A stretch of 64,000 nucleotides of DNA from Bacillota bacterium (lineage in GTDB: Bacteria; Bacillota; DTU025): NCBI GenBank assembly GCA_050951805.1, contig JBMNJT010000002.1:352001-416000 (forward strand). The letters run 5' to 3'. This document shows, one piece after another, positions 17,867 through 42,205 of the stretch. Position numbers and translations under genes: made by a program. Positions within the stretch are counted from its first letter, which is position 1. Each line of letters opens with the position of its first letter. The notes beneath the pieces are model-generated. The model ran no database searches. It was not told the DNA's origin and saw only the letters and a list, made by a program, of their open reading frames with translations.

Positions 17867-20800
17867 GTGGGCAGAGTGTTCAATGTCTTTAAGGTTCGAG
17901 ATCAGCTCGTCAGTGATTTCAAGGATTACGTTACTGGATTCATACATATCAACGATGAACGCATAAGAGGAAAGGTCGATGAGGAGTTCAAGCATGGCTT
18001 CCTATGGCCGGAGCCTCTGATACAACTGAACCCCTCCTATGAACAGACGAAGTATGTTGATGATCTTGTGGAGGAGGGACTGCTTCATCCCGAATGCAGC
18101 AGGATCTTCCGGCGTGATAAGACCCCTGACAGCCTCGGCAAACCGCTTCGCCTTTACAAACACCAAGAGGAAGCGATTCGTGCGGCAAGCAGCGGAGGCA
18201 ATTACGTTTTGACTACCGGGACAGGTTCCGGCAAGAGCCTTGCTTTCATAATCCCCATCGTGGATTACGTCCTGAGGAACGGTTCAGGCAAGGGTATCCA
18301 GGCAATTATCGTCTATCCCATGAACGCCTTGGCGAACAGCCAGATGGAGGAGCTCGCCAGATATCTAAAGCATGGTTACCATGAGGGCCGCGAACCAGTT
18401 ACTTTCCGACGCTATACAGGGCAAGAAAGCATGAAGGAACGCGAGGAAATCCAGGAGAATCCTCCCGACATTCTCCTTACAAACTATGTCATGCTAGAAT
18501 TGATACTCACGCGCGTACATGAGAGAGGGCTGGTTTGGGCGGGACAAGGCCTTCGTTTTCTTGTTCTCGATGAATTGCATACCTATCGGGGCCGTCAGGG
18601 TGCCGATGTTGCGATGTTGGTGCGTCGGGTCCGGGAGGCATTCGAAGCCCCGAACCTACAATGTATTGGCACATCTGCGACTATGGCCAGTGAAGGCGAT
18701 TTCAGAGATCAGCAAGCCCAGGTGGCAGAGGTGGCGAGCTTGCTCTTTGGGAGCGCCGTTGTTCCGGATCATGTTATCGGCGAAACGCTATGCCGTGTCA
18801 CCCCTGAACGAGATTTGAGTGATCCCAAGTTCATAGAAGAGCTCAGGCAATGCATCACCCATCCAGAGTCTTTCATGCCTAAAGGCTACGAGGCATTCAG
18901 AATGGATCCTTTGTCCATATGGATAGAGAGCACGCTTGGGGTGCGCAAGGAAAAGACCACTGAACGGCTCGTTCGGCAAATACCGATGAGCATAACAGGA
19001 CCGAAAGGCGCGGGGCGGAAGCTTGCAGATCTCACCGGGCTCGACGAACGGCTTTGCACGGAGGCGATCCAAAACCAGCTAGCGGCCAGTTACGATCCTG
19101 CAAATGCTCATCCACAGACTGAGGCAGCTCCATTCGCTTTCAAACTTCACCAGATGATAAGCAGAGGCGATACAGCCTACGCGTCGATAGGATCTCCTGA
19201 CGAGCGATACATAACTCTTCGAGGGCAGCGTTACGTTCCAGGAGAGGACAGGTCGCGATTTCTGTACCCCCTTGTCTTCTGCCGCGAATGCGGCCACGAG
19301 TACTACAGTGTAACGCAGGTAACCCAGACTGGAACTGGGCGGGTGTGCTATGAACCTCGTCAGTTTGGTGACGTGACTCCCGATAACGAACGGGATGACA
19401 GATCGTGCCGCCCTGGCTATCTCTACATTGACGATGACAAGCCGTGGCCGATCGATGACGGTGAAGTTGTGGCGAGGGTTCCCGATAACTGGGTGGAAGA
19501 AATGGCAACCGGGCGGAGGGTGAAAAGATACTATCAAGAGAGAGTGCCAAGCCTTGTTGTTCTTAGTCCAGATGGGACAGTGGCCGAATCCACAGATGAT
19601 GAGCGCATCCTGTGTGCATTCGTGCCGTCTCCATTCCAATTTTGCCCGTACTGCGGAATTGCGCACACGTCAATCTTGGGGGGTGAATACGGCAAGCTGT
19701 CTACCCTCGCTACAGAAGGACGGAGCAGCGCCACAACGATCATCAGCCTGTCAGCAGTCCAATCGCTGCGAAAGTGTGATGAGCTCGACAGCAGCACCCG
19801 CAAACTATTGAGTTTCACTGACAACAGGCAGGATGCCTCGCTTCAGGCAGGCCATTTCAATGACTTTGTACAGGTGGGGCTGATCCGCTCCGCCCTATAC
19901 AAGGCCATGACGGAGGTGGGAGAGAGAGGGCTTACTCACGATGTGCTTCCTCTTAGAGTCCTTGATGCCTTAGATCTTCCTCTAGAGTCGTATGCTTACG
20001 GGGGTGAACATGGTCTTGACTATCAGGCTCGATCCCGGGCTCGAAGATCCATGCAAAGCGTTTTGGAATACACCCTCTATTGCGACTTGGAACGGGGTTG
20101 GCGAGTCAACTCCCCCAATCTGGAACAATGCGATCTGCTCAGGATCGAGTATATAGCCTTGGATGAACTGTGCGCGGATGAAAGTGTCTGGAGCAATAAA
20201 CATGTGTCTCTGAGAGAGGCATCCCCTGAAACTAGGAAAGCCGCATGCGAGGTCTTGCTTGATTACATGAGGCATGGTCTTGCGATCAATGTGGAATGCT
20301 TGGAGCCTGATTACGGGGAAGTTGTCCGACGCCAAAGCGTGCAGAATCTCATAGAGCCTTGGGCTATCGACGAAGGGGAGAAAATGAAGACCGCCGCAGC
20401 CCTGTTTCCCGGCCCTCGTCCGAAAACACGGTATGGTGGAGGCGACGATCTCTACGCTTCCGGGAGGGGCTTGTACTGCGGTTACCTCCGGAGAAGCACA
20501 ACTTTCCCGGATTATCCCGAGAAACTCAGTTTAGATGAGGCCGAAAGCGTGTTGAAGTGTCTCCTGGACGCTCTTCGCTACGGAGGGCTTATTGTTGAGG
20601 TTCCCGAATACCGCCGGCGGGACAAAAACGTTCCAGGCTATCAAGTGAGGGCCAGCGGGATGATGTGGAAGGCTGGAGATGGAACCAATCCCAGGCCTGA
20701 TCCCTTGCGCACGTGGCCTGGCTTTGAGAATCTTCATAAAGCCAATCCGTTCTTCCTGGAACACTACACTGGGAAGGCCAGAAAGCTTCAGGGGATAGAA

Positions 20801-23182
20801 GCGCGTGAGCATACCGCTCAGGTATCTGCCGAAAACAGGTTGGAAAGGGAGAGACTCTTCCGCGAAGGGCAGCTTCCGGTGCTTTATTGCTCGCCCACCA
20901 TGGAATTGGGTGTCGATATCAGAGACTTGGCCGTGGTGAACATGCGCAACGTTCCTCCGAACCCTGCAAACTACGCGCAGCGGAGCGGACGCGCCGGGAG
21001 AAGCGGACAGCCTGCCCTTGTGGTCACGTATTGCTCTACCTTCAGCTCTCACGACCAATATTTCTTCCGCCGGCCGGAGCTGATGGTTGCAGGATCTGTT
21101 CTGCCGCCACGCATGGAACTTGCAAATGAGGACCTACTTAGGGCGCACATCCACTCAATGCTCCTATATGAGGCCCAGATCTCCCTAGGGTCATCGATGG
21201 TCGAGGTATTGGACATGTCGGGCGAGAAGCCGACTCTTGCTGTAAATGAAAGCATTGCGTCTGCCCTGCGGGATAGAGCTATACTGGCTCAGACTCGTGT
21301 TCCCGCGGAACGGGTTCTTGCTTCCTTGAAGCCACAGCTTGAGACGGTTGATTGGTATACAGATCGTTGGCTTGAGGATGTGCTCAACCAAGCCTATATC
21401 AGCTTCGACCGCGCATGTGAGCGGTGGAGGGGCCTTTTCAGATCCGCCAAGGAACAGGCGGATAGGAATCACAAGATTCAGACGGACCTCTCGTGCACCG
21501 ACAATCACAAGAAAGATCGGGCGGAGAGGTTGCATAACGAAGCGATTCGCCAGCTCAAGTTGTTGGCCAACGAAGGAGAGCATGACGACTCTGATTTCTA
21601 TCCGTACCGCTACTTCGCCGGAGAAGGCTTCTTGCCTGGGTACAATTTTCCTCGGCTGCCTTTGTCGGCATACATCCCTGGACAGCGAGGGCACAGAGGG
21701 AAGCGGGAGTTCATCTCGCGCGCGCGTTTCTTGGCCATATCCGAATTCGGCCCGAGATCCTTTGTTTACCACGAAGGCTCCCGATACCAGATTCGCAAGG
21801 TGATTCTGCCCCCTCAGGCGGTTGCAGGGGATGAGAGGGATCTCGCGCTCGAGACCATCAAGCAGTGCACTGCTTGCGGCTGTATCCATCCGTGCAACGA
21901 CGGGGATGACATCGTTATTTGCTCCAACTGCGGGCAGCGACTGGGTGGCGCACTTTCGAGTCTATTCAGGATGACCAATGTTTCCACTGAACGAGCTGCC
22001 AGAATCAACTGCGACGAGGAAGAGAGGCAGAGAGTGGGTTACGACATCCGGGTAGGTTTCAGGTTCGCCAACGTTGGAGGCAAACCCAGCTTTCGGGTAG
22101 CTCAGGTGACATGCGACGACGAGGAGCTTGCCGCTATTACGTATGCGCCTTCGGCGACCATTTCCAAGATCAACTTGGGCTGGCTCAAGCGCAAGGAGGG
22201 CGATGTGCTTCCGGGATTTGTCTTGGATCTGGAAACAGGCCGTTGGGCCAGGGGCAGCAAGACGTTGGAGCGAGTCGACGAGTCTGCTGCCGATGCAGAC
22301 GAGATGTCGAGGAACCAGGAACGCGTCATTCCCTATGTTGATGACACAAAGAATTGCCTTATATTCACTCCCACCTGCATGCTAGACGAATCCGCCATGG
22401 CAACCCTTCAGGCTGCGCTGAAGAGCGCGATTCAGATCAAATATCAGCTGGAGGATTCGGAACTTGCTGCTGAACCTCTTCCCTCGAGGAGTGATCGACG
22501 CCTGATTCTATTCTATGAGGCTGCTGAGGGCGGCGCTGGGGCTCTCAGAAATCTCATCGATGATCCGCAGGCTTTGTCTGAGATTGCCAGAGAAGCCTTG
22601 AGCATATGCCATTACGACCCCGATACCTTGGAGGATCTGGGCGCCGGTTCGGATGTTGATGAAGGGTGCGAGGCTGCGTGCTATGACTGCCTGATGAGTT
22701 ATTCAAACCAGATGGACCATGCGATTCTCGACAGAAAGCACAAGAAGGTATTGGAGTTTCTGGAGAGCATGAAGGACTCGTGTACTGAGGCCTCTCCGGT
22801 GGGTATGCCTCGTGGGGAGCACCTTGAGACTTTATTGGCCAAGTGCGACTCCGATCTTGAACGCAAATGGCTGAAGTTCATATCCGATCTCGACTTGAGG
22901 CTTCCTACAGAGGCACAGAAATATCTGGCCGAGGCCAATACGAGGGTTGACTTCTACTATGAGATAGAGTCAGCTCCTGCTGTGGCCGTATACATAGACG
23001 GTCCTGTTCACGAGATTCGAGATCGTGCGCGGGTCGACAGAGACCAGGAGGCGGGCCTTGCACAACTTGGAATCATGTGCCTGAGGTTCAGCTATGACGA
23101 CGACTGGGAACGGATCATAGCAGAGCACCCGAGCATTTTCGGCAAGATCGAAAGTGGTGCACGGAGAGGTGATATGCAGTGA
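17867..23182 (+). CDS. YprA/SftH-family SF2 helicase with Zn ribbons, DUF1998 and C-terminal DUF559/Vsr-like nuclease
   Basis: TTGTGSGKS, YPMNALANSQ, DELH, SAT, CRECG, CPYCG, SFTDNRQDA, HTAQV, PTMELGVDI, QRSGRAGR, CEAACYDCLMSYSNQ; terminal RVDFYY...AVYIDGPVH. Confidence 0.9.
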   Translation: MGRVFNVFKVRDQLVSDFKDYVTGFIHINDERIRGKVDEEFKHGFLWPEPLIQLNPSYEQTKYVDDLVEEGLLHPECSRIFRRDKTPDSLGKPLRLYKHQEEAIRAASSGGNYVLTTGTGSGKSLAFIIPIVDYVLRNGSGKGIQAIIVYPMNALANSQMEELARYLKHGYHEGREPVTFRRYTGQESMKEREEIQENPPDILLTNYVMLELILTRVHERGLVWAGQGLRFLVLDELHTYRGRQGADVAMLVRRVREAFEAPNLQCIGTSATMASEGDFRDQQAQVAEVASLLFGSAVVPDHVIGETLCRVTPERDLSDPKFIEELRQCITHPESFMPKGYEAFRMDPLSIWIESTLGVRKEKTTERLVRQIPMSITGPKGAGRKLADLTGLDERLCTEAIQNQLAASYDPANAHPQTEAAPFAFKLHQMISRGDTAYASIGSPDERYITLRGQRYVPGEDRSRFLYPLVFCRECGHEYYSVTQVTQTGTGRVCYEPRQFGDVTPDNERDDRSCRPGYLYIDDDKPWPIDDGEVVARVPDNWVEEMATGRRVKRYYQERVPSLVVLSPDGTVAESTDDERILCAFVPSPFQFCPYCGIAHTSILGGEYGKLSTLATEGRSSATTIISLSAVQSLRKCDELDSSTRKLLSFTDNRQDASLQAGHFNDFVQVGLIRSALYKAMTEVGERGLTHDVLPLRVLDALDLPLESYAYGGEHGLDYQARSRARRSMQSVLEYTLYCDLERGWRVNSPNLEQCDLLRIEYIALDELCADESVWSNKHVSLREASPETRKAACEVLLDYMRHGLAINVECLEPDYGEVVRRQSVQNLIEPWAIDEGEKMKTAAALFPGPRPKTRYGGGDDLYASGRGLYCGYLRRSTTFPDYPEKLSLDEAESVLKCLLDALRYGGLIVEVPEYRRRDKNVPGYQVRASGMMWKAGDGTNPRPDPLRTWPGFENLHKANPFFLEHYTGKARKLQGIEAREHTAQVSAENRLERERLFREGQLPVLYCSPTMELGVDIRDLAVVNMRNVPPNPANYAQRSGRAGRSGQPALVVTYCSTFSSHDQYFFRRPELMVAGSVLPPRMELANEDLLRAHIHSMLLYEAQISLGSSMVEVLDMSGEKPTLAVNESIASALRDRAILAQTRVPAERVLASLKPQLETVDWYTDRWLEDVLNQAYISFDRACERWRGLFRSAKEQADRNHKIQTDLSCTDNHKKDRAERLHNEAIRQLKLLANEGEHDDSDFYPYRYFAGEGFLPGYNFPRLPLSAYIPGQRGHRGKREFISRARFLAISEFGPRSFVYHEGSRYQIRKVILPPQAVAGDERDLALETIKQCTACGCIHPCNDGDDIVICSNCGQRLGGALSSLFRMTNVSTERAARINCDEEERQRVGYDIRVGFRFANVGGKPSFRVAQVTCDDEELAAITYAPSATISKINLGWLKRKEGDVLPGFVLDLETGRWARGSKTLERVDESAADADEMSRNQERVIPYVDDTKNCLIFTPTCMLDESAMATLQAALKSAIQIKYQLEDSELAAEPLPSRSDRRLILFYEAAEGGAGALRNLIDDPQALSEIAREALSICHYDPDTLEDLGAGSDVDEGCEAACYDCLMSYSNQMDHAILDRKHKKVLEFLESMKDSCTEASPVGMPRGEHLETLLAKCDSDLERKWLKFISDLDLRLPTEAQKYLAEANTRVDFYYEIESAPAVAVYIDGPVHEIRDRARVDRDQEAGLAQLGIMCLRFSYDDDWERIIAEHPSIFGKIESGARRGDMQ

Positions 23183-26031
23183 ATAGCATGGGTTTCGGAG
23201 TAGGAACTTTGGTTCGAGCAAGGGGCCGTGAGTGGGTGGTACTGCCAGGCTCTGAAGAGGAACTCCTCCTTCTCAGGCCTTTGGGAGGCGAGGGGGAGAT
23301 TGCTGGTATATGCACATCCCTTGAGCCTGTAGAATCTGCTCACTTTGATCTGCCTGATCCGGAGCATGTTGGGGAGTCTTTTTCCTGCCGGATGTTGCGG
23401 GATGCGGCAAGGCTCACATCCCGCGCCTACTGCGGTCCTCTGCGCTGTTTGGGCAGGGTTGCCGTGGAGCCCCGCCTATACCAGCTTGTACCCTTGTTGA
23501 TGGCGCTCAAACTCGATCCGGTCAGGGTGCTCATTGCAGACGATGTAGGGGTGGGCAAGACGATTGAGGCTTGCCTCATAGCCCGCGAACTCCTCGATAG
23601 AGGAGAGATTACTCGAACCGCTGTGCTCTGTCCACCACACTTGGCAGAGCAGTGGCAGGTGGAAATGGCCGAAAAGTTCCACATTGAAGCTGAGCTTGTT
23701 CTTTCGTCCACCGCATCTCGCCTCGAACGCAACTGCGCTATGGGGCAGTCTCTCTTCGAGGTGTATCCACACGTGATCGTCTCTCTTGATTTTATTAAGA
23801 CAGACCGCAGACGCGAGGAATTCCTCAGGACGGCGCCGGAGTTCGTGATCATAGATGAAGCCCATACATGCGCTTTCGGCTTTGAAAGACGTGGAAGGCA
23901 TCAAAGGTATGAGCTGGTGTCGAAGCTTGCAGCCGATCCTGACCGTCATATGGTGTTTGTTACAGCCACTCCGCACAGCGGCAAGGAAGACGCGTTCCGT
24001 TCGCTCATAAGCTTTCTCGATCCTGAGTTTTCCTATTATCCGGAGGATCTTTCAGGACCCGACAACGAGCCCCGTCGCCGCCGGTTGGCTCAGCACTTAG
24101 TCCAGCGTCGGCGGGCTGACATAGAACACTACCTTGACGCTGAGACTCCCTTTCCCAGGCGGGATGCGCAGGAGGCTCATTACACGTTGCACACCGGCTA
24201 CAAGCAGCTGTTCGATGAGGCCATAGATTATGCGAGGGAGACTGTGGCGGACGAATCGGGAGATTTTCATAGGCAGAGGGTGAGATGGTGGTCGGCGCTC
24301 GCCCTCCTTCGCGCCTTGGGATCGAGCCCTAGGGCAGCCGCGGCTACGATGAGGACGAGAGCGGGCGTCGCTGAGGCCGAGACGGTGGAGCAGGCAGACG
24401 AGATCGGGAGGCGGACCGTCTTTGATATTGATGCAGATGAGCAGCTTCCTGAAGGGATCGACATAGTGCCGGGGAGCCTAGCGGAATTGGAAGGCGAATC
24501 CGAGGAGGATAAGGAGAGCCAACGCGAAAAGCGGCTGCTATCACGCATGGCGCGGCAGGCAGAAGCCTTGGAAGGCGATAAGGATCACAAGTTGATCAAG
24601 ATGGTTGGTTTTGTGGAGGAGTATATCGATGATGGATATAGCCCCATAGTCTTTTGCCGTTTCATTCCCACCGCTGAATACGTGGCGGAGGAGTTGAGGA
24701 AGCGTCTTCCCAAGGACGTGGAAGTGGCTTGTGTAACAGGGATGCTTCCCCACGTTCTCAGAGAAGAGCGGGTGATGGATCTTGCTAACCACAAGAAGCG
24801 GGTTCTGGTGGCTACTGATTGCTTGTCGGAAGGGCTCAACCTGCAGGAGAGCTTCAACGCTGTCATCCACTATGACCTATCCTGGAATCCTACGAGGCAT
24901 GAGCAAAGAGAGGGCCGGGTCGACAGGTTCGGTCAGAAGAGCCCAAGTGTTCGCGTCCTTACATACTATGGCCTCGACAACCAGATAGACGGAATCGTCC
25001 TCGATGTCCTCCTTCGAAAGCACCAGACGATCAGAAGCAGCCTGGGCATTTCGGTGCCAGTGCCGCTTGACGCGAAGGCTGTGGAGGAAGCTATCTTGGA
25101 AGGACTTCGCCTGCGACAGCCGGAGGACGCTGTTCAGCTTTCGTTGCCAGGCATTGAGGAACAGGTCTATGTGGCCAGGTCCGAGTTTGAAGCGATTTGG
25201 GACAAGTCCGCCCAAAGGGAGAAGCGATCGAGAACGGTGTTTGCCCAGGATTCGTTGAAACCTGAAGAGGTTCTGGATGCCCTCGAGGAGGCGCAAGGCT
25301 CGATGATGACGGCTGCCGATGTGGAGCGGTTCTTCGTAGGGGCGGTGAGAAGCTCGGGAGGCGCGGTGCTCTGCCATGATGGTGTGGCGGTTTTCGACCT
25401 GCGTGAGATGCCTCGCGCCTTGAGAGATGCTTTGGGTGCGCCAGAAGTCTTTGAGGCAGCCTTCGATTTGCCGGTCCCTGAAGGGGTTCGCTGGCTTAGA
25501 CGGACTGATCCGTTTGTGGAATCGATGGCCTCCTATGTCTTGGATACCGCCTTGGATGCGCACGGAGAGACGATTGCGCGCCGGGTTGGCGCGATGATGA
25601 CCGACGCGGTGTCCACGCTCACGACGCTGCTTCTGGTGAGGTACAGATATGACATAACAACCTACATGGACATACAGGAGGCTTCGCAGCTGGCTGAGGA
25701 GTGCATTGCCCTAGCCTATGAGGGGCTTCCTACTCAGCCTCGTTGGCTTGAAGATCACCAGGCCCAGGAGCTCCTCGATGTGGAGCCTACGGGCAATGTC
25801 TACCGTGAGCAGGCTTTGTATTTCGTGAGGCAAGCAGTAGATGGCTACGATGGGCTTGTAGAGCATGTGGAGGAGATTGCGCAGCAGAGGGCTGAGGGCC
25901 TCCTTGCGGCTCACAGGCGTGTGCGTTCGGCTGCGCGGATGAAGGGTGTTCGCTACAGGGTTCAGCCCCGTCTCCCCGCAGACATACTGGGCATCTATGT
26001 TTATCTGCCCGACAGGAGGGAGAACGCATGA
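23179..26031 (+). CDS. SNF2-family ATPase (DrmD/RapA-like)
   Basis: GTLVRARGREWVV, LIADDVGVGKTIEA, DEAH, TATPHSG, TDCLSEGLNLQ, WNPTRHEQREGRVDRFGQ; GTGA overlap with the upstream gene. Confidence 0.9.
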   Translation: MNSMGFGVGTLVRARGREWVVLPGSEEELLLLRPLGGEGEIAGICTSLEPVESAHFDLPDPEHVGESFSCRMLRDAARLTSRAYCGPLRCLGRVAVEPRLYQLVPLLMALKLDPVRVLIADDVGVGKTIEACLIARELLDRGEITRTAVLCPPHLAEQWQVEMAEKFHIEAELVLSSTASRLERNCAMGQSLFEVYPHVIVSLDFIKTDRRREEFLRTAPEFVIIDEAHTCAFGFERRGRHQRYELVSKLAADPDRHMVFVTATPHSGKEDAFRSLISFLDPEFSYYPEDLSGPDNEPRRRRLAQHLVQRRRADIEHYLDAETPFPRRDAQEAHYTLHTGYKQLFDEAIDYARETVADESGDFHRQRVRWWSALALLRALGSSPRAAAATMRTRAGVAEAETVEQADEIGRRTVFDIDADEQLPEGIDIVPGSLAELEGESEEDKESQREKRLLSRMARQAEALEGDKDHKLIKMVGFVEEYIDDGYSPIVFCRFIPTAEYVAEELRKRLPKDVEVACVTGMLPHVLREERVMDLANHKKRVLVATDCLSEGLNLQESFNAVIHYDLSWNPTRHEQREGRVDRFGQKSPSVRVLTYYGLDNQIDGIVLDVLLRKHQTIRSSLGISVPVPLDAKAVEEAILEGLRLRQPEDAVQLSLPGIEEQVYVARSEFEAIWDKSAQREKRSRTVFAQDSLKPEEVLDALEEAQGSMMTAADVERFFVGAVRSSGGAVLCHDGVAVFDLREMPRALRDALGAPEVFEAAFDLPVPEGVRWLRRTDPFVESMASYVLDTALDAHGETIARRVGAMMTDAVSTLTTLLLVRYRYDITTYMDIQEASQLAEECIALAYEGLPTQPRWLEDHQAQELLDVEPTGNVYREQALYFVRQAVDGYDGLVEHVEEIAQQRAEGLLAAHRRVRSAARMKGVRYRVQPRLPADILGIYVYLPDRRENA

Positions 26032-32757: not shown

Positions 32758-33167
32758 GCAACCTCAGACTGAGACTGAAAGCATTGGTGAATCCGCATCA
32801 GGGATGCCCATCAGTGACCTACGGGTTCCCGGCAGAGTCTTGGCGAGCAGGGTAGTGATCATCACGGCCGTGGGTAGGCCGCTTCGACCGGCAGCTGGTG
32901 CCGCCGAGCGCAAGCAAATTCCCTGAGCGAGGTGTTCACCCCTATGGTGCTTGCCCATAGCCAGTCGTGACATGGCATGCGATTGTTGAACAAATCACAC
33001 AAGTTGCAGAGCGAGGTTGAAGCACAAGAACGTGCAAAGAAGCGAACTTTCTATCAAGAAGAGATAACAACCTTTCATACACAATCTTATCACAGACCTC
33101 CCAAGCTGCAGATAATCGCCAACTATCTGGTTCGGCTAGCCAAGGTTAGTTAAAGGGTGATTGCAAT

Positions 33168-36100
33168 ATGAACGAAGTGATCCGTTCGTTGGGCACGTAC
33201 AGGTCTCGGCGAAACATGTCTAGGCACGCTAGAACCCTGCAAAAAGCGTGCAAAAGCATAAGGAACGATCCATTCTTCGAAGAATGGCACTTTGTGATCA
33301 TGGATCGTGATTCACCGTATAGAGGCCTCTTCCAAGAGTGCGTTCTTGGGGTTGTTGCCTGCCCTGGTTGGGCAGATCGGAGCAACGAGAGGCTCGTGCT
33401 TATGGCGCGGCACGTGGATGCGGACGAGCTTGGCCAGAGCTGCCGTCCCCGGAAAATCGAATACGCAATCAAGACAGTTGTTCTTCCTCCCCCGGGGTCA
33501 TTGCCCATAGCTCTTGGCGGGAGCGAAGACACATATCCCCCATACACCGAATCCATCCGCCTAGCTACGGCCTTTAGGGAGAGGGCCTGCGAATGGGAGG
33601 CTGAGTTGGCGCACAGAATGACAGCCCCTACATTGGACTCGTCTTTTGGCATGGCCCAACAAGGGCTATCTTCTATGTATGCAGATCAAATGCCAGAAGA
33701 TTATCTGTCCGAGAAGAGCCGCACGGGCGAGCCGCTGATGGTTCAAAATACACTGGAATGGCCCCAAGCGGCTAGCCAGGGCATACCCGATAGCGCGCCT
33801 CTGCGGCAACAGGTCTCAGATATGCCGGAATATGATTCTGCAGAAATGCAGCCTATTAGGATCGACGTTCCCGAGGCTACAACAATAACTCAATATGAGA
33901 CTCGCATCTCGGAGGTTCTCAAAGGCGCTCAGTTCTTGGGCCGCATTGAAATGCCAGAGGAGCAGCTTGAAGCCTTATTGGGAATCATCGCATCCCAACT
34001 TGATGGAGTCATGTATCCCAAAGCATGTGCGCGCCGCCTTGCCCAGAACTACCCTGCCGCTGTTGCGTACGCCCTCGTCCAAGTTGCCGCAGAAGAGTAC
34101 GCCGAGGGTGAAGTGTGGCCAAGAATCGCCGAGCATTTGGGAGGTCTGGAAACCGCGGTCGTGAACGAGTTGGGCATCAGCATTGAAAGGTGTCAGAAAC
34201 GTTACAATCTTGTGGACTGCGAACGGGATAGCAAACTACGATATGTAACCCCTATGCTGCTTCAGGGCGGCATCCCGGATTCCTGTATTTGCGAGCTCAT
34301 AGAAATCGTGCAGCACAATTGCGTGCGACGCGGAATCGTAACCCACAGTTCAGTGCTGCGCTGGTTCAAAGATGAGGTTAGGACAGGGCACTGGCGAGAA
34401 AGACAATACCAGATCTCCGAGCCTGTTTTGGACTTTCTTGAATACGGCGGTGCCTGGGCTGAGAAATGGGTAGTTGCTACGGCCATCTTTTTGAGTTCCC
34501 GATCAGGGTCGTCTGAGGGTATTAGTGACACGACTCCTAGCCGCCTAATTCGCGCCTTGGAGAGATGGGGGCGCGACCAGGTTGCAGCCGCATCGGAGAT
34601 CGTTGGGAGAGAGTGGGGCCGTGGCACGTATCCCCGACGTCTCGATGATTCAGCTTCAGGTGGAGACTTGCGGGCACCTATGCGTGCAAGGGTGGAGACG
34701 CGTCTGGCGGACAACCGTAGTGAGATAATCCTCAGCATCGGAAAACACACGATTGAAGGAGACTTCAGCCGTCCTGACTGGCTGGAAGCCATTGTTAGGA
34801 ACATTGGGGGCTCTGAGATCCGCAAGAAGACTCTCTCCGCTACAAGGGCGCCGGGAGGCGTGAGCGTAGATGCAGTCCTCATGGAAATACCCTGGGAGGA
34901 TGGTCCCTTGCAGCTGGATATCGAATACGGAGAAGATATCCTCCAGTCGTATCCTGTGGCAACTTTGGACTATGATGAGCCTTGGATGATGTTCTCTAGC
35001 TCCGGCAGGCTAGTCAAGGAAGACGTACTGGACCACGCCAACCTCTGGCTTGTATTGCCGCGCGAAGCTCGCATTTTGCCGGAGCATATCGTGGGGATGA
35101 GAGAGCCATTCCACGACGGTGGGGTCTATGACATAGCTTGGCTAGACCTTCAGGAGTGCGAGGAATACAAGCTTAGGATCGAATATGGCGACATCAACAA
35201 AGACTATGCCGTGCAACCCGAACTTAAGAGCGAGGAGATAAGGCTGCGCGGCGGCGATGCAGTGCAGGGAGCGTTCATCAAAGGCCACCCTATCTACATG
35301 GGCTCTCTTCCACATCTCAGGTTCTTGGTCGAAGGCGAGCACGGAGAACAGGCAGAAGGCTTCGCTCAACTGGAAGTGGCGATTGAGACGCTCGATGGCC
35401 AAACCAAACTGAGGGAGAGACTTGCAGAGAACCTCGATTACCTCTTGGAAGATGATGGTTGGCTTGACCTTAACCTCCTCACAGAGCTACTCGGGATATC
35501 GGCTGAACAGGATGTGAAAGTGAGCTTCATTTGGCAAGACGCCAACGGTATGCAGAGGAGCTATTCAGTATTCCGCATCTGCGGGCTGATAATCGATTTC
35601 GACGAGAAGGCCTTCGTGCTCCAAAAGGACGAGATTGCGAAGGCTGAGATGATCCTTCCGCCAGGGTGGAAGTTTGTTGCCGGCAGTGGCGTGAAGATCG
35701 CCGGAGGGTTCGACGATGTAGTCGAGCTCTACCTCGACATGAACTTGTATACGACGACATACGGATGGTTAGTCCGAGGTGGCCTGAAGCTGCCGATTGC
35801 TATAGAACCTCCTGTGGTCGCATGGCGCTTCTTGGGCAATGGGCAGACTCGCTATCGGCGCTTTGGAGGGACAACGGAGAGTATCTGGCTTGCGGACATT
35901 GATAGCGGGAAGTATGAGGCTATTGACATCATGACCACAGCTCCGTACATCTCCAGCGTCAGGCTGGAGGCTGGGCCTGCCCACGGAGATTATCAGTATT
36001 TTGCTGGAGACCGAAGAGTTGTCCAACTCAAGCTCGGCCAGCTTGCTGAGACGATACGTTCCCAATCCCCTCGCGCCAATCTATACGCAGTAATGAACTA

Positions 36101-37343
36101 CTCCGACTCCTCCGAGACTGCCAGGGTACACGTGGCCACAGTCCATTCGGAGTGGGCGCCAGAGAGCATCGAGGCGACCATAGCGGGTCCCGAAAACCAG
36201 CGGAAGATCTCATTGAACTGGGTGGGTATCGCTCCACGTTCTAGGATTATAGCCATAATGAGGCCAGCCTGGCTTAGCGGCGGCCTACGTCTGGAATCCA
36301 CGATAGAACCGGGTGAGCGGGAGTGCATATTCGAGGCTAGCAGATTGTGCCCTGGTCCATATTGCATCAGGTTCCTTGATGAAGAGGATCTTCTTTGGGG
36401 CGGGTCAGATGACGCCTCACCCGAAAGATTGATTTGGGTATCGGATGGTGACCCCCAGATACGCGAATTTGAGTTTGTAAGGGAAGGGACAATGCTGCGA
36501 TGTTCCGGTTCAGCCTGGCCCGAAAGCGTCTGCGATCATCTGACAGGGGCGGTGGTATGGAATAGACGAAATGGCGGGTTTGAGACAATTGAAATTGAGC
36601 AACTCGAAAATGGAAGGTTCGAGTTCAGCGTCTACGACGTCAAGAAGGATGCGAGCATAGTAGGAGTATTCTCTATTGAACATCAAATTCCATACCGTTT
36701 TGCCGCTGTGGGACCACATGACAGTGCCATGGAAACAGTGACCCGCGCCTCCGCGGCCCACTGGCTCGACCTGTTCGAACGCACTCCGTGCGGATTGCCT
36801 ATGCGGATAAAGCCAAGCGGCGTACTCCCCATAACCGTTCCACGCGTCCCCGCAAAGAGGATATTGAAGGGCCTTGCGGCTAACTTGAATGAAATAGAGT
36901 TCTCTGTTGATGACCCCAATTATCCGGGTCCAATCAAGCTTATTGTAGGTAACAGCGGAGAAGAATTCGATTTCTCCTTCCAACGTTTTCTCTGCGAGTG
37001 CACGGACCCTAATTGTCCGCATCCGCCAAGAGTGATTTTCCAAGAAGAATGGAATCAGCGGCACTACCCGAAATGCAAAGAGCTTAAGACCCACTACAAA
37101 TCCATTCGGGCTCGGATTTTGATTGCTTCCGATTTTGCAAGCCCCGTAGGTCGTATCGGCAGAGGAAGCAAGGCGTTTGAGCCCTATCTTCGTACCGTAG
37201 CAGATAGCTGCTTCAGGCCGCTTGCCGGCGAAACGGGAAAGCTGCGTAATCCTACCGAGCTGAGCGAAGTTCTGCTCCAATCATATGCCAGCATGTGCAG
37301 GGAACTCCTGGCCGAATGCGGCATGGGAAAGGAGAATGATTGA
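33168..37343 (+). CDS. Large DruH-like partner of the downstream helicase
   Basis: 1391 aa with no ATPase motifs. EYAEGEVWPRI and RYVTPMLLQGGIP resemble my recollection of the DruH (STY4851/ECs_5259 family) N-terminal motif. Beta-rich middle; TGATG overlap with the helicase. Confidence 0.6.
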   Translation: MNEVIRSLGTYRSRRNMSRHARTLQKACKSIRNDPFFEEWHFVIMDRDSPYRGLFQECVLGVVACPGWADRSNERLVLMARHVDADELGQSCRPRKIEYAIKTVVLPPPGSLPIALGGSEDTYPPYTESIRLATAFRERACEWEAELAHRMTAPTLDSSFGMAQQGLSSMYADQMPEDYLSEKSRTGEPLMVQNTLEWPQAASQGIPDSAPLRQQVSDMPEYDSAEMQPIRIDVPEATTITQYETRISEVLKGAQFLGRIEMPEEQLEALLGIIASQLDGVMYPKACARRLAQNYPAAVAYALVQVAAEEYAEGEVWPRIAEHLGGLETAVVNELGISIERCQKRYNLVDCERDSKLRYVTPMLLQGGIPDSCICELIEIVQHNCVRRGIVTHSSVLRWFKDEVRTGHWRERQYQISEPVLDFLEYGGAWAEKWVVATAIFLSSRSGSSEGISDTTPSRLIRALERWGRDQVAAASEIVGREWGRGTYPRRLDDSASGGDLRAPMRARVETRLADNRSEIILSIGKHTIEGDFSRPDWLEAIVRNIGGSEIRKKTLSATRAPGGVSVDAVLMEIPWEDGPLQLDIEYGEDILQSYPVATLDYDEPWMMFSSSGRLVKEDVLDHANLWLVLPREARILPEHIVGMREPFHDGGVYDIAWLDLQECEEYKLRIEYGDINKDYAVQPELKSEEIRLRGGDAVQGAFIKGHPIYMGSLPHLRFLVEGEHGEQAEGFAQLEVAIETLDGQTKLRERLAENLDYLLEDDGWLDLNLLTELLGISAEQDVKVSFIWQDANGMQRSYSVFRICGLIIDFDEKAFVLQKDEIAKAEMILPPGWKFVAGSGVKIAGGFDDVVELYLDMNLYTTTYGWLVRGGLKLPIAIEPPVVAWRFLGNGQTRYRRFGGTTESIWLADIDSGKYEAIDIMTTAPYISSVRLEAGPAHGDYQYFAGDRRVVQLKLGQLAETIRSQSPRANLYAVMNYSDSSETARVHVATVHSEWAPESIEATIAGPENQRKISLNWVGIAPRSRIIAIMRPAWLSGGLRLESTIEPGERECIFEASRLCPGPYCIRFLDEEDLLWGGSDDASPERLIWVSDGDPQIREFEFVREGTMLRCSGSAWPESVCDHLTGAVVWNRRNGGFETIEIEQLENGRFEFSVYDVKKDASIVGVFSIEHQIPYRFAAVGPHDSAMETVTRASAAHWLDLFERTPCGLPMRIKPSGVLPITVPRVPAKRILKGLAANLNEIEFSVDDPNYPGPIKLIVGNSGEEFDFSFQRFLCECTDPNCPHPPRVIFQEEWNQRHYPKCKELKTHYKSIRARILIASDFASPVGRIGRGSKAFEPYLRTVADSCFRPLAGETGKLRNPTELSEVLLQSYASMCRELLAECGMGKEND

Positions 37344-40300
37344 TGAGCATTGATCCTATTAGAACGAGCCAAGCCGTTGCTGAGGCCTATTACGGCTATC
37401 TATGTACTACTTTTCAGTTCTCGGATGAACGTTTGAGCGAGCAATTCAAGGCAGGGCTCAGGCAAAAGGACAAATACGTAAAAGGACCGATTGTGCAGGC
37501 GACGCCGCCGTTCAAGAAATCCCTGACGTTGAATGACCTTGTTGATGAAGGCATCCTTTCACCTCTGTTTTTGAAGTGCCCAGAAGACGTTCTCACTAGG
37601 CCTCTATACGTGCATCAGGAAGCTGCCATCCGAAAGATGGTATCGGGGCAGCGCAACATCGTAGTTGCGACAGGAACAGGAAGCGGGAAGACGGAGTGTT
37701 TCATGTTGCCCATCTGTAACCACCTACTTCGTCAATACGAAGCTGGCACATTGGGGCCAGGGGTCAGAGCGCTGCTGCTCTACCCGATGAACGCATTGGC
37801 GAACGATCAAGTCAAACGGCTTCGTGATCTTTTCGAGCCGTTCGAATTCGTCACCTTTGGACGGTATACAGGCGAAACGCTCAAGACTAGGGGAGAAGGA
37901 TTGGACGCCTACAGGAACACTTTCAACTGTGATCCTTTGCCTAACGAAATGATATCTCGTGAAGAAATGCAGACCCAACCCCCTCATATCCTCATCACCA
38001 ACTACGCAATGCTAGAATACCTGCTCCTCCGCCCTGAAGATGATCCATTCTTCGGCGGCTCCGACTCTGACAATTGGAAGTTTCTCGTGCTTGATGAAGC
38101 CCATACCTACACGGGCGTAAAGGGCATTGAGACAGCTATGCTTATCCGGAGGCTGAAGGATCGCGTGGTCGAAGGGGAGACCGGTGCTCTGCAATGCGTA
38201 GCTACAAGTGCTACCTTAGGCAGGGGATTGGATGATGCTCCAGGGATCATGGAGTTTGCGTCACGCCTGTTCAGCGAGGATTTTGAATATGATCCCGCGG
38301 ATCCTAGCAAGCAAGATTTGATCGTTGCTGAAAGAGAGCCCATTGACGAAAGAAGTATCTGGGGCAGACCGGATCCCCAGCTTTATGTTGTCTGGCGTGA
38401 CATCTTATCGCAAGACGACAGTGCAGATGCCGTATCAAGACTGGCGGAGGCGGCGATTGAACATCGCGTGCCCAATGAAGTAGTAAACAGAGCTTATGAG
38501 AGGTTTAGTTCATCAGCGGACGGTTTTCTCTATGGAGTAATGTCAGGCGATGAATATGTCGTTCGCACGCAGCAGCTTCTTGCTGAGGACCCGCTCGCCC
38601 TCACTGAGCTTGCCGGCATGCTCTTCGGTTCAGGTATGTCGCCTCATACTTCCGAGCAAAGTGCAGTTTCATTAATAGGTTTGGCCGTAAGGGCTAGGCC
38701 TTCCGAGGACAGCAGCCCGCTTCTCCCAGCCCGCTACCATCTGATGCTCAAAGCACTTGGTGGAGCCTGGTTGTCCTTTTTGCCTGAGCCCAAAGTCCAT
38801 CTTGACCAGGTGGCTAGAGTCACATGGGGCGATAAAACTGCCATGGCATATGAGGCTGGAGTGTGCCAGAAATGTGGAGCGCCCTATATACTTGGTGCGA
38901 GAGTGAATTCTGATTCGGGCAATGGCTGGCATTTGGCGCCAGTTTCAGCTGATAGCAATGATAGGGAAGCACGATACTACGCAGTGTTGGCTCCTGAAGA
39001 TCCTTCTGAAATGAGGCCCGACGAAGATGAAGATCCTATCGCGTACGACACCAGCAAATCCCTGTACCAGCTGTGTCCTGCTTGTGGAGATATTCGACGT
39101 GCAGATTCACTCGGAATTGAGTGTAGCTGTGGCGTCGAAAAAGTCCGACTTCTAGAGACGAAGTCTGCTTCACGCTTGATAGGCCGCTGCATTGTGTGTG
39201 GAGGACAGAACACGAAGCATGGAATTGTACGCAGAGTGTCATCTTATCCTGAAGCTGCGGCAAGCGTTATCGCTACATCCCTATATCAGGAACTTAGCTT
39301 TGATGAATCGGGTATGGAATCTCGTAACGGTCAAAGTGCCCCAGAAGTGCAATATGATGAAGACGGCTGGGTGATAGACGTCTCAGCCCCAAGGAGTGAA
39401 GACGCTGGACCACAGAAACTGCTTGTCTTCTCCGACAGTCGACAGGATGCGGCCTACTTCGCCCCATACATGCAGACAAGCTATGATCGGATGCTGCGGC
39501 GCAACATTCTTCTAGGAGCAGCCCGAGAGGCAATAGATGAGTTGCCTGACCTGAACATCATGGTTCCGGATCTATGGACACATGCGGAGCTGAAACTGAG
39601 ACCAGTGTTGCCGACGGGTTATGATGCGCTAGTAGAGGCTCAGAAATGGGTGCTGTACGAGTTTACTGGACGCGACAAACATGGTCTTGAACGTCTCGGA
39701 CTGCTTGGGTTCGAGTTAGAACGGCCTGAGCGATGGACAGTGCCCCTACATCTTCAGAGGAAATGGGGTCTGTCGGAGTCCGAATCATGGGATCTGTACC
39801 AGGCATTGCTAGACACGTTCCGGACAAGTGGAGCCGTAAGCGTGCCACGCGGCGTGGATCCAGAGGATGAACTGTTTGAACCGGGAAATCTTCTCGGATC
39901 ACTAACCAAGGCCGACCGCGACCGTCGCTATGTAAAGGCTTGGCTTCCCACGAGCAGCTCGACCGCGAACAAGCGGTCCGATTACTTGACACGCCTTGCT
40001 CAGCAAATTGGGCTTTGGGATGATCCGGAGAAAGCTGCTTGCGATCTGCTCAGCGACATATGGGACAGAGACTTGATGCCACATAATGCAAGAAGCCTGT
40101 GGAACGACTACTTTGAACCAGTGGTAGACAAGGGTGGAGGCGTTTCATATCGGCTAGTTCCAAACAAGTGGCGGATATTGGCTTACGGAAGCAGAAATGA
40201 ACCGAAGTGGTATGTGTGCGACAAATGCGGTAGGCTGGCATTGCGGAATATCAGGGGCGTATGCCCTCAGTATAGGTGCATGGGTAGACTCAACCAGGCC

Positions 40301-42205
40301 GACATGTCCGAAAGACTCGAATCCAATCACTACGTGCGTCTTTATGAAAGTCAGAATTTCCCTAAAGAGATGGTATCCCGCGAACATACAGCCCAGCTCA
40401 GACCGGGAGCGGCGGCAAAATCCCAAACAGAGTTTCAAGAAGGGCGCATCAACGTATTGAGCTGCTCAACAACATTTGAACTCGGCGTCGACCTTGGTGA
40501 TCTCGAAGCCGTGTTGATGAAGAACGTTCCGCCTTCGCCGTCCAACTACATCCAAAGGGCCGGTCGAGCAGGCAGGCGGGCTGGCACTGCCGCCATGGTA
40601 GTCACATATGCGCAGGATAGGCCTCACGACGCGTTCCACCACAGATATCCAGAGAGGATGATCAAGGGGCATATCAAGCCTCCCCATTTTGACATAAACA
40701 ATGAGAAGATAGTCCTGCGGCATATGTATGCAGTGGCCTTGGCGGACTTCTGGTACAAGAACCCAAACTACCTGGATAAAGTGAAGGATTTCTTTTTCCC
40801 AGATGATGCGGATTCGGCAGTAGACTCTTTGATTCAGTATCTAGACTCGAGACCGGAATCTATCAGAGTGAGCCTTGAAAGGGTAGTGCCCGAGAAACTA
40901 ATCGAGCCGCTAGGCGTAGATACCTGGCAATGGGTCGATAGTTTAGTCGGCGATGGAGGTCCCCTCGCCGTTGCGCGCATGGAAGTGGAAAATGACATAA
41001 AGAGGCTCGACGCCAGGTACCGAGAACTGGCTGCTCAGCGGAAAAAATCTGACTACGTGCTCAGGCTAATAGAAACGATGCAGAAAAGGTATCTCTTAAA
41101 CTACCTATCTAGCAAGAATGTCCTGCCCAGATATGGCTTTCCTGTCGATGTGGTCACTTTGGAGACGAAGAACAATCACTATGCTACAGACGACATCTGT
41201 CTACAGCGCGAACTGAAGATTGCCATTTCCGAATACGCTCCCGATGGAGAGGTGGTAGCTGGCGGAGAAGTGTGGACCAGCCGGTATCTGGAACGCATGC
41301 CGGGGAAGGAGTTGCCTAGCTATTGGTACGCTAGTTGTCCGGGGTGTGGTAACCACGTAACCAAACTGGACGTTAGGGATGGCGATGCAAGGGCTATATG
41401 TAGTGTCTGTGGCAGAGAAGTCGAATGCAGGGAGTCCTTTATAGTCCCGGAGTTTGGCTTTCTAGTAGACCCGAACAAGCCTGCGGTTGCAGGCGGCCGA
41501 CGTCCCCAGCGGACACACTCAACAAGGGTTTTCTTCTCGGGGATTGAGGATGATTATACAAGTGGCGATCAAGGATTCAATTTCCCAAATGGCCGCGTCA
41601 TTATCAGCACGTCAAAGAGAGGGAAGCTGACAGTTATCAATGATGCGAGGGGCGCGAAATTCCGCGTGTGCCAATCATGTGGCTATGCATGTATTGCAGA
41701 AGGCAAAGACCCCGTGAAACATCATAAGAACGCCTATGGGAAGGAATGCAGTACAAAGTCCTTGACAAGGATAGCGCTGGGACATGAGTTTCTCGGAGAC
41801 ATAGCGAGAATTCGATTTGAGCCGTGTACGCGAGTAGATCAGGGCTTTTGGTATTCGCTGCTCTACGCAATGATTGAAGGGGCTTGTGAGGCGCTGGACA
41901 TTGATCGAACGGAGATAGATGGCTGTGTGCAGTGGGGCGACTCTGCCGGCCAGCCTACTTACCTCATATTGTTCGACTCTGTATCCGGGGGAGTCGGCCA
42001 TGTACAGCAGTTAGGACGTGAGGAGGCACTCCGTGACACCCTGTACACAGCCTATATTAAGATGGCCTCTTGTACCTGCGGGGATGATGCGGGCAATGGG
42101 AGTTGCTACAGTTGCCTGAGAAACTACACCAACCAATTCTGCCACGACGTACTTAACAGGGGACTGGTGGTGCGATTCCTGAAGGAACTAGGTGTGGAAG
42201 GCTGA
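37343..42205 (+). CDS. DruE-like YprA-family SF2 helicase with DUF1998
   Basis: ATGTGSGKTE, YPMNALANDQ, DEAH, SAT, several CxxC pairs, FSDSRQDAA, HTAQL, TTFELGVD, QRAGRAGR, CTCG...SCYSCLRNYTNQ; no C-terminal nuclease extension. Confidence 0.85.
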   Translation: MSIDPIRTSQAVAEAYYGYLCTTFQFSDERLSEQFKAGLRQKDKYVKGPIVQATPPFKKSLTLNDLVDEGILSPLFLKCPEDVLTRPLYVHQEAAIRKMVSGQRNIVVATGTGSGKTECFMLPICNHLLRQYEAGTLGPGVRALLLYPMNALANDQVKRLRDLFEPFEFVTFGRYTGETLKTRGEGLDAYRNTFNCDPLPNEMISREEMQTQPPHILITNYAMLEYLLLRPEDDPFFGGSDSDNWKFLVLDEAHTYTGVKGIETAMLIRRLKDRVVEGETGALQCVATSATLGRGLDDAPGIMEFASRLFSEDFEYDPADPSKQDLIVAEREPIDERSIWGRPDPQLYVVWRDILSQDDSADAVSRLAEAAIEHRVPNEVVNRAYERFSSSADGFLYGVMSGDEYVVRTQQLLAEDPLALTELAGMLFGSGMSPHTSEQSAVSLIGLAVRARPSEDSSPLLPARYHLMLKALGGAWLSFLPEPKVHLDQVARVTWGDKTAMAYEAGVCQKCGAPYILGARVNSDSGNGWHLAPVSADSNDREARYYAVLAPEDPSEMRPDEDEDPIAYDTSKSLYQLCPACGDIRRADSLGIECSCGVEKVRLLETKSASRLIGRCIVCGGQNTKHGIVRRVSSYPEAAASVIATSLYQELSFDESGMESRNGQSAPEVQYDEDGWVIDVSAPRSEDAGPQKLLVFSDSRQDAAYFAPYMQTSYDRMLRRNILLGAAREAIDELPDLNIMVPDLWTHAELKLRPVLPTGYDALVEAQKWVLYEFTGRDKHGLERLGLLGFELERPERWTVPLHLQRKWGLSESESWDLYQALLDTFRTSGAVSVPRGVDPEDELFEPGNLLGSLTKADRDRRYVKAWLPTSSSTANKRSDYLTRLAQQIGLWDDPEKAACDLLSDIWDRDLMPHNARSLWNDYFEPVVDKGGGVSYRLVPNKWRILAYGSRNEPKWYVCDKCGRLALRNIRGVCPQYRCMGRLNQADMSERLESNHYVRLYESQNFPKEMVSREHTAQLRPGAAAKSQTEFQEGRINVLSCSTTFELGVDLGDLEAVLMKNVPPSPSNYIQRAGRAGRRAGTAAMVVTYAQDRPHDAFHHRYPERMIKGHIKPPHFDINNEKIVLRHMYAVALADFWYKNPNYLDKVKDFFFPDDADSAVDSLIQYLDSRPESIRVSLERVVPEKLIEPLGVDTWQWVDSLVGDGGPLAVARMEVENDIKRLDARYRELAAQRKKSDYVLRLIETMQKRYLLNYLSSKNVLPRYGFPVDVVTLETKNNHYATDDICLQRELKIAISEYAPDGEVVAGGEVWTSRYLERMPGKELPSYWYASCPGCGNHVTKLDVRDGDARAICSVCGREVECRESFIVPEFGFLVDPNKPAVAGGRRPQRTHSTRVFFSGIEDDYTSGDQGFNFPNGRVIISTSKRGKLTVINDARGAKFRVCQSCGYACIAEGKDPVKHHKNAYGKECSTKSLTRIALGHEFLGDIARIRFEPCTRVDQGFWYSLLYAMIEGACEALDIDRTEIDGCVQWGDSAGQPTYLILFDSVSGGVGHVQQLGREEALRDTLYTAYIKMASCTCGDDAGNGSCYSCLRNYTNQFCHDVLNRGLVVRFLKELGVEG

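Follow-up and report, generated by a model that had tools for sequence, protein, structure and literature searches.

Seven plus-strand genes (g1 to g7) occupy positions 17867-42205 of a 64,000-nt stretch of Bacillota DNA, hereafter the window, and raise the question of whether a co-oriented array that combines two YprA-family helicases with a DNA methyltransferase, a PIN gene and a HEPN gene works as one antiviral machine or is a set of neighbours. An initial annotation, made from the sequence alone, had proposed the former, a single cooperating multilayer unit. Our analysis favours another reading, to which we assign a probability of roughly three in four: four anti-phage modules, each inherited independently, are packed co-directionally in a hypervariable Bacillota defence island, and do not make up one integrated machine. 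The modules are an ARMADA type I-like operon (g1-g3), the PIN gene (g4), a HEPN gene with a restriction-endonuclease (REase)-like domain (g5) and a Druantia III-B-like pair (g6-g7). What we observed is the gene content, the intact motifs, the recurrence of modules independently of one another and a recombination boundary within the array.

All seven open reading frames (ORFs) were found in the order that the initial annotation had given, helicase-nuclease, SNF2, methyltransferase, PIN, HEPN-like, DruH-like and DruE-like, with their catalytic motifs intact. Overlaps of 4 bp join g1 to g2, g2 to g3 and g6 to g7, and gaps of 374 bp (g3-g4), 460 bp (g4-g5) and 411 bp (g5-g6) separate the other neighbours. 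GC content is 0.54-0.575 in g1-g3, 0.48-0.50 at 30-34 kb, where g4 and g5 lie, and 0.51-0.55 in g6-g7. Pfam, PADLOC and NCBIfam together assigned six of the seven genes, g6 having no match in any of them, and Walker A and DExH motifs are present in the three helicases g1, g2 and g7. Scans for promoters and terminators in the inter-module gaps and at both ends of the array gave site numbers that were not above those of shuffled sequence. As previously remarked for this locus, no integrase is visible: we found no integrase family among the window ORFs scanned, and the window contains no tRNA.

We compared the window with eight metagenome loci that carry close relatives of g6. Two of them contain the whole array at 99.9% identity and therefore represent the same strain as the window. 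These two contigs are the only places where the full array was found, and the arrangement did not recur in 400 other genomes sampled from the phylum, recurrence of the order in unrelated genomes being the test that had been suggested for a cooperating unit. In five further loci (L063, L064, L065, L067 and L068) homology to the window begins at 33053-33138; L067 is too short to show its upstream DNA, and in the other four, whose g6 homologues are 73-80% identical, the 1.4-2.1 kb upstream of g6 is unrelated to the window. Identity to the remaining locus, L066, is 96% over 32150-33149 and then 76-90% over 33150-42149, and the synonymous divergence (dS) from L066 is 0.06 in the C-terminal part of g5, 0.43 in g6 and 0.61 in g7. 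The identity drop and the homology starts place a recombination junction at 33053-33167, the left edge of the g6-g7 cassette. From this break at the start of g6 and the unrelated DNA upstream, we conclude that the cassette has been exchanged independently of its left-hand neighbours.

A wider view gave a consistent result. The same-genus genome G360 has no match to g1, g4, g5 or g7 and no DNA match to window positions 17137-59373, and we therefore consider this whole stretch a variable island. The contigs of G360 end or diverge at ~17137 and ~59373, and no empty site could be reconstructed. Likewise, none of the 20 g7-type loci that we inspected has a g3, g4 or g5 homologue in the ~14 kb upstream, and one of them has a weak SNF2-domain match there.

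These data bear directly on the strongest form of the single-unit proposal, an obligate seven-gene machine in which methylation marking, two translocases and RNase fail-safes are transcribed and selected as a unit. Such a machine would account for genes that are co-oriented and all intact, for an array that is conserved in the same-strain contigs and represented in 14 sequencing runs by at least 0.97 of the words sampled, and for contigs from RNA libraries that cover all seven genes. However, conservation in near-identical DNA reflects inheritance and not independent recurrence, and each module recurs without the others. Moreover, the modules are 374-460 bp apart, as against overlaps of 4 bp within them, GC content and dS are discontinuous, with a recombination junction at the start of g6, and g4 was seen at full length nowhere else in the 400 genomes. 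We regard the obligate machine as highly improbable, the independent recurrence of the modules having already largely refuted it. The claim of one cooperating multilayer unit is not supported by the comparison either, since the modules recur separately and a recombination junction lies between g5 and g6; independent occurrence, which had been named as the finding that would speak against cooperation, is largely what we found.

The left-hand module starts with g1 (17867-23182, 1771 aa), which carries the YprA-family domain set in one protein (Pfam DEAD at residues 98-275, Helicase_C at 971-1047 and MZB at 1514-1609), together with the motifs GTGSGKS118, DELH235 and SAT270. It matches the YprA structure 6znp (E=1.4e-24) and the PADLOC DruE3 profile (343 bits), and extends ~160 residues past MZB, whereas g7 stops 28 residues past this domain. 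Since a direct Pfam scan of the g1 tail and a PDB sequence search gave no nuclease family, the assignment of residues ~1625-1771 as a Vsr/DUF559-type nuclease rests on homologues. Out of 7998 candidates scored, 3239 were homologous to g1 residues 1300-1771 at E<=1e-5; those listed are ~50% identical over 97-99% of this region and span archaea as well as many bacterial phyla, and many of them bear PF04480 (DUF559/Vsr-like) and go by the name 'YprA/very-short-patch-repair endonuclease'. Across 19 aligned tails, g1 retains every position that is at least 90% conserved (R-x-DF-x-Y, Y-x-DGP-x-H, D, G, RF and W). Thus the g1 tail aligns with PF04480-bearing homologues and g7 has no nuclease after MZB, in agreement with the earlier statement that only the first helicase has a nuclease tail. 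The family motifs that the two helicases had been said to share (YPMNALAN, F[ST]DxRQDA, HTAQ, ELGVD and CYxCL) were all seen in the BLASTP alignment of g1 with g7, which shows 38% identity over 315 residues (RecA1) and 28% over 387 residues (RecA2-OB).

The second gene, g2 (23179-26031, 950 aa), encodes a SNF2 helicase of the BrxHII/RapA/DrmD-like kind, with Pfam SNF2-rel_dom and Helicase_C domains and the motifs GVGKT124, DEAH226 and QREGR576. It is followed by g3 (26028-30005, 1325 aa), a PglX/DrmMI-like N6-adenine DNA methyltransferase with Pfam Eco57I and N6_Mtase domains, an S-adenosylmethionine motif DPACGSG at 497 and NPPW at 779; PADLOC DrmMI matches it with 233 bits, and NCBIfam BREX-2 PglX weakly. 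Domains and motifs therefore bear out the SNF2 and methyltransferase naming. An ARMADA system is described as a YprA-like helicase that ends in a Vsr-type nuclease, together with a BrxHII/RapA-like helicase and a methylase resembling PglX, the YprA gene being generally first in type I (Bell et al, 2025; 10.1101/2025.09.15.676423, available in part). Judged from their sequences, g1-g3 fit ARMADA type I by gene content, order (YprA-SNF2-methyltransferase) and domains, including the Vsr/DUF559-type C-terminal nuclease. The spread over many phyla, archaea included, that the available text of the same source states for type I also holds for the g1 homologues.

We also considered two other known systems for g1-g3. 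In common with class 1 DISARM, g2 is a DrmD-like SNF2 helicase and g3 a DrmMI-like methylase. We rejected DISARM because in g1 helicase and OB-CON-DUF1998 portions are fused, and not split into DrmA and DrmB, and because the DrmD match of g2 is below cut-off (NCBIfam 314.8 bits, cut-off 610; PADLOC DrmD, 283 bits); in addition, no PLD (DrmC-type) gene was found among the window ORFs scanned. Dpd was rejected as well: despite the 785 bits of g2 on one DpdE model of PADLOC (PDLC02853), no queuosine/Dpd biosynthesis family was present among the scanned ORFs, and the NCBIfam DpdE match (177 bits) is under its cut-off of 500.

The ARMADA-like triplet occurs elsewhere without its present neighbours. 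We found g1-type helicases (43-65% identity) in four of the 400 genomes (G369, G372, G373 and G389). G369 has homologues of g1, g2 and g3 in the same order (41, 45 and 42% identity), and in G372 all three are present as decayed pieces. At both of these readable loci, no homologue of g4-g7 lies downstream of the triplet within ~20 kb (G369) or ~14 kb (G372).

Between the two helicase modules lie two single genes, and their naming as PIN and HEPN-like was upheld. g4 (30379-31257, 292 aa) matches Pfam PIN_4 with 60 bits over residues 140-282, has acidic residues at D143, E175, D243/244 and D268, and leaves its N-terminal ~135 residues without assignment; we predict a stand-alone RNase. It has no PADLOC or NCBIfam match, and no full-length relative in the 400 genomes, where the matches are at the level of the PIN domain only (26-35% identity, inside ORFs of 327-504 aa). 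g5 (31717-32757, 346 aa) combines a DUF3644 HEPN domain (129 bits) with an EC042_2821 REase-like domain (40 bits) and belongs to the PADLOC candidate family PDC-S19 (398 bits). The HEPN motif Rx4-6H is present as R108-x4-H113, and g5 thus shows the features of the PDC-S19/EC042_2821 HEPN family. DUF3644 has been described as a HEPN family whose EC042_2821 group is fused to REase domains and found in restriction-modification operons (PMC3710099, available in part), and g5, with the same fusion, likewise lies between restriction-like systems. DUF3644 HEPN proteins with other C-terminal domains have reported anti-phage (HEC-08) and anti-plasmid (Ishtar) activity in the source text available; their HEPN domain is that of g5, but their C-terminal domains differ. 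The PADLOC PDC families derive from genes embedded in BREX, DISARM and type I restriction-modification systems (10.1101/2024.01.29.577857, available in part), and a full-text literature search for 'PDC-S19' returned no paper.

Could g4, g5 or both instead be accessory subunits of one of the systems beside them, serving ARMADA I as an abortive back-up arm, for instance? ARMADA II, according to the accessible part of Bell et al (2025), almost always has a RelE-like RNase fused to a fourth helicase, ArmD, and g5 stays beside g6-g7 in L066. Yet the ARMADA I loci of G369 and G372 have no g4 or g5 homologue, and four related g6-g7 contigs (L063, L064, L065 and L068) lack g5 upstream. Moreover, g5-like genes, present in seven of the 400 genomes, are in no case near a g1- or g7-type gene, and thus not near YprA helicases, and PDC-S19 is catalogued as a single-gene candidate. 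We therefore give this alternative scarcely any credence, and treat g4 and g5 as two separate modules.

The right-hand module consists of g6 (33168-37343, 1391 aa), a putative sensor or scaffold, and g7 (37340-42205, 1621 aa), a compact helicase. In g7, Pfam detected DEAD, Helicase_C and MZB (1509-1593) domains, and the protein ends at residue 1621 with no PLD nuclease domains; the motifs GTGSGKT112 and DEAH252 are present. PADLOC profiles DruE1 (569 bits) and DruE3 (530 bits) match it, which supports the earlier DruE-like naming. The PDB sequence that matches it best, with 254 bits, is a chain of 2108 aa (9tu7) that bears no title beyond 'DEAD/DEAH box helicase' and is probably E. coli DruE. 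Near-full-length g7-type helicases (32-84% identity) occur in 35 of the 400 genomes; in the searches for g1-type and g7-type genes two candidates were scored per genome, and the g7-type loci were inspected mainly on the upstream side. Among the 20 g7-type loci, 18 have a complete ORF, 941-1691 aa long, directly upstream of the helicase on the same strand; at one of the remaining two the partner ORF is cut by the contig end, and at the other a 464-aa ORF is found instead. A hidden Markov model (HMM) of the g6 family, built from an alignment of 12 sequences, matches the ORF directly upstream of the helicase at 14 of the 20 loci, which are those whose helicase is at least 40% identical to g7, and the matches span a conserved N-domain and a long C-terminal region that flank a variable insert. 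With the same HMM, five other partners showed no detectable relation, and L036 had a match to the N-domain only (488-aa ORF further upstream). As the large upstream partner is kept at 18 of 20 loci, we conclude that g6-g7 is a conserved two-gene cassette of the Druantia III kind.

Within this kind, a compact DruE without PLD domains that has one partner is classed as Druantia III-B (10.64898/2026.05.13.724758, available in part). The pair MSMEG_1253/1254 of M. smegmatis, with a DruH of 1132 aa and a DruE of 1667 aa encoded by overlapping genes, is of this kind (PMC13316683, available in part). g6-g7 are likewise two overlapping genes, with a DruE of ~1620-1670 aa that has DEAD, Helicase_C and DUF1998 domains and no PLD nuclease, and with an upstream partner of more than 1100 aa that has no annotated catalytic domain. 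DruH is described as a multidomain protein with Ig-like domains that is thought to be a sensor and evolves faster than DruE (10.64898/2026.05.12.724681, available in part). g6 likewise evolves faster than g7, the ratio of non-synonymous to synonymous divergence (dN/dS) from L066 being 0.33 for g6 and 0.115 for g7. The cassette also occurs in other company. In UBA5389, a genome of the same family (L001, DHON01000096.1, Firmicutes bacterium; L001/L020), a g6-g7-type pair is part of a different co-oriented array: upstream of it lie an 880-aa ORF, a type III methylase (PADLOC 1412 bits), a NERD/UvrD GajB-like helicase and a 439-aa ORF (L001 1-9168), and downstream an ORF of more than 1555 aa without assignment (L001 19399-24063). 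A Nostoc plasmid with two matching places was set aside as a different, SMC-associated Druantia-like locus.

We next asked whether g6 is a DruH, as the label DruH-like in the initial annotation implied. The protein has no Pfam, PADLOC, NCBIfam or PDB-sequence match. An exhaustive search of 1.84 billion representatives with residues 192-1391 yielded 244 relatives at E<=0.001, of which 11 reached E<=1e-30; for most relatives the similarity is confined to the N-domain, which stands at the beginning of proteins of 1000-1900 aa. An AlphaFold2 model of the same residues, computed from 32 sequences (predicted local distance difference test score, pLDDT, 82; predicted template modelling score 0.55), has a helical N-domain (~224-483), followed by some eight beta-sandwich (Ig/Fn3-like) domains and, at the C-terminus, an alpha/beta part with invariant C1278, C1283, H1299 and C1303. 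With this large model Foldseek retrieved only generic Ig/Fn3/macroglobulin (MG) arrays (TM<=0.13), and no chain identifiable as DruH was among the best 50 rows; a model of the N-domain (pLDDT 85.5) gave no convincing fold match either, the best having E=0.14.

Direct comparisons with known DruH proteins were negative. PADLOC DruH profiles did not match g6, 15 partner ORFs or 35 remote g6 relatives, and the PADLOC DruH3 profile PDLC00038 had no match in the genome that contains the window. For comparison we took E. coli DruH from NZ_CP134663.1 (L050:8647-11937), whose homologues bear PF27201/PF27205 and are named YjiT or STY4851 family. BLASTP of g6 against this protein gave E=0.87, hhalign of the g6 family against 16 YjiT/DruH sequences gave a probability of 0.55%, and the g6 homologues are without PF27201 and PF27205. 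An ESM Atlas lead to YjiT_N (score 0.89-0.88) was accordingly dropped, being upheld by neither BLASTP nor hhalign. Hence the label DruH-like stands for position, size and, as far as the model indicates, an Ig-like-rich architecture; in sequence, no relationship of g6 to the YjiT/STY4851 DruH family or to the PADLOC profiles was detected. Compared with E. coli YjiT/DruH, the g6 family is separate, with its own conserved helical N-domain and a variable middle insert. The partner ORFs of this family (L020-L033, e.g. L024:9623-14554, L032:5947-9828 and L028:9459-14522) share the N-domain and the C-terminal region and differ in their middle inserts, and the partner therefore looks modular. The inserts of L024 and L026 are coiled-coil, LmuB/JetC-like, and PADLOC 'C3a139 HKD+Snf2' matches L032 (582 bits), L033 (258 bits) and, weakly, L028 (93 bits). 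In one 824-aa protein (P0047), a g6-type N-domain (12-255) is joined to a segment similar to the central, insertion-domain portion of the PADLOC profiles DruE1/2/3, which hints at a physical link between the g6-type N-domain and DruE. The compact DruE helicases of Bacillota are thus tied to a partner family that current DruH profiles miss.

Several observations weigh against our reading of independent modules. L066 retains g5, g6 and g7 together at 85% nucleotide identity. Of the four other genomes in which a g1-type helicase occurs, three have a g7-type helicase as well, against a base rate of 35/400 (hypergeometric P ~0.002; the sample is tiny, two of its three ARMADA copies are in decay, and defence-rich genomes are a confounder). 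When window 17500-37450 was divided into 30 bins, contigs from three RNA libraries covered 29, 25 and 21 of them, and one contig bridges the gap between g4 and g5, making read-through transcription possible; such contigs indicate presence only, with no information on strand, ends or a single transcript, and may reflect DNA carry-over. Experimental validation covers ARMADA type II only in the available part of Bell et al (2025), with none for type I. Finally, the same source reports that Druantia III-A and ARMADA II are adjacent, recurrently so, and synergistic in their native E. coli host, and the adjacency seen here may therefore not be pure chance.

The E. coli precedent is the closest one. 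The Zorya II-Druantia III-A-ARMADA II island of E. coli (ATCC 8739, EDL933) likewise has two co-directional YprA-helicase systems side by side. It holds ARMADA II and Druantia III-A, whereas the window has ARMADA I and a III-B-like pair in the opposite order and without Zorya; here, unlike there, a PIN gene and a HEPN gene stand between the two systems, and neither an integrase nor a tRNA attachment site was seen. By this precedent, synergy may be facultative: the modules would work alone, but the ARMADA I operon and the Druantia-like pair would be kept adjacent for more-than-additive protection, one way being that both act on the same DNA intermediates, where g1 with its nuclease would make up for the lack of one in g7. 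The synergy of ARMADA II with Druantia III-A in E. coli, the g7-type helicase in three of four g1-type carriers, and the intactness of all seven genes beside a decayed McrB speak for this. On the other hand, there is no second adjacency among the 400 genomes, the co-occurring systems of the three genomes are on different contigs or ~750 kb apart, the g6-g7 cassette has been swapped independently of its left neighbours, and the subtypes are not those tested in E. coli. We consider facultative synergy rather unlikely, and this genome gives no evidence for functional synergy.

With four independent modules as the preferred reading, we infer the following biochemical steps, as well as any defence phenotype. 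The PglX-like methylase g3 would mark host DNA, and, by analogy with ARMADA II, the SNF2 translocase g2 and the YprA-nuclease g1 would find, unwind and cut unmarked invader DNA, with survival of the cell. g4 would act as a stand-alone PIN RNase, and g5 as a one-gene HEPN-REase effector of the kind typically embedded among restriction-like systems. The fast-evolving, Ig-like-rich g6 may sense infection or serve as a scaffold, and g7, if it behaves like DruE of E. coli and M. smegmatis, would engage phage replication intermediates that contain single-stranded DNA and block replication or circularisation.

The locus is, then, a defence island of the ordinary sort, assembled from systems of known kinds, and if its modules are independent, a run of co-oriented genes as striking as this one of 24 kb cannot be taken as evidence of a single system. 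It is also a clean, intact Bacillota example of ARMADA type I, and a natural test case for ARMADA-Druantia synergy beyond the subtypes of E. coli. More speculatively, the pairing of ARMADA-type with Druantia III-type systems might be a general rule across subtypes and phyla (II with III-A in E. coli, I with III-B-like here), with YprA helicases processing each other's DNA intermediates and g6 founding a second, non-YjiT family of Druantia sensors, in which an Ig-like array with a swappable insert sets phage specificity; we offer this tentatively and think it unlikely. DNA of the locus is present in many runs labelled as anaerobic-digester and sludge metagenomes. Among the 14 runs mentioned above, in which window 28000-36000 was sampled, 10 are DNA-labelled and come from bioreactor, anaerobic-digester or sludge metagenomes of six studies, four of them possibly being where this DNA came from; for the four remaining runs, all from one further study, neither kind nor label is stated.

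The surroundings of the array contain additional defence-related genes. An McrBC locus (AAA_5, DUF2357, PDDEXK_7) on the plus strand comprises an McrB pseudogene (46865-48858), disrupted by two or more frameshifts and by an in-frame stop near 47447, and an intact McrC of 523 aa (48925-50496). The McrB orthologue of G084 maps onto the window in three frames, and the McrB fragment matches PADLOC PDC-M26A with 176 bits. Of the previous claim that nearby McrBC and PIN genes are broken, therefore, only the McrB part was confirmed: McrC is intact, and a scan of 99 stop-to-stop ORFs, each 60 aa or longer (12.6-17.9, 42.2-47.7 and 50.4-53.1 kb; Pfam E<=0.001), brought no broken PIN gene to light. Homologous McrBC genes are carried by the related genomes G084 and G195, in the latter on the same contig as its DruE pair. 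Directly 3' of g7 is an ankyrin-repeat protein (42491-43138, plus strand; PADLOC PDC-M72A, 42 bits), and this region also lies beside g7 in L066, weakly conserved at 68% identity (one 500-bp bin computed). The minus strand encodes a 311-aa HNH endonuclease protein (44663-45598) and a regulator with helix-turn-helix and IrrE/M78 peptidase domains (51343-52566) that matches PADLOC RmrA (121 bits) and capP.

Outside the window, the same genome has a third YprA/DruE-type helicase (C3:149035-155705, equivalent to L071:1036-7706, minus strand). It is 1476 aa long, has DEAD, Helicase_C and MZB domains and matches PADLOC DruE3 with 252 bits. A 279-aa ORF comes next, and then a TPR protein of 446 aa with a match of 205 bits to PADLOC PDLC01170 ('TPR fused to cold-shock-like OB fold'). 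This locus resembles the signature of TALON, a system described as extremely rare and largely confined to Chloroflexota (Bell et al, 2025, available part), and the genome would therefore hold three YprA defence systems.

Finally, we noted two features at the margins of the island. An HTH_17 (excisionase/AlpA-type helix-turn-helix) gene, 4.4 kb upstream of g1 (12894-13442, plus strand), lies within the stretch that G360 still shares, the DNA match of that genome to the window extending as far as ~17137. The gene may be left over from a mobile element; its neighbourhood yielded no integrase. On the right, a contig of G360 (C149) joins window position ~60620 to DNA that is ~17 kb further on in the genome analysed here (C2:429937), which suggests a second insertion just right of the 432-aa phosphatase-like gene of the window.

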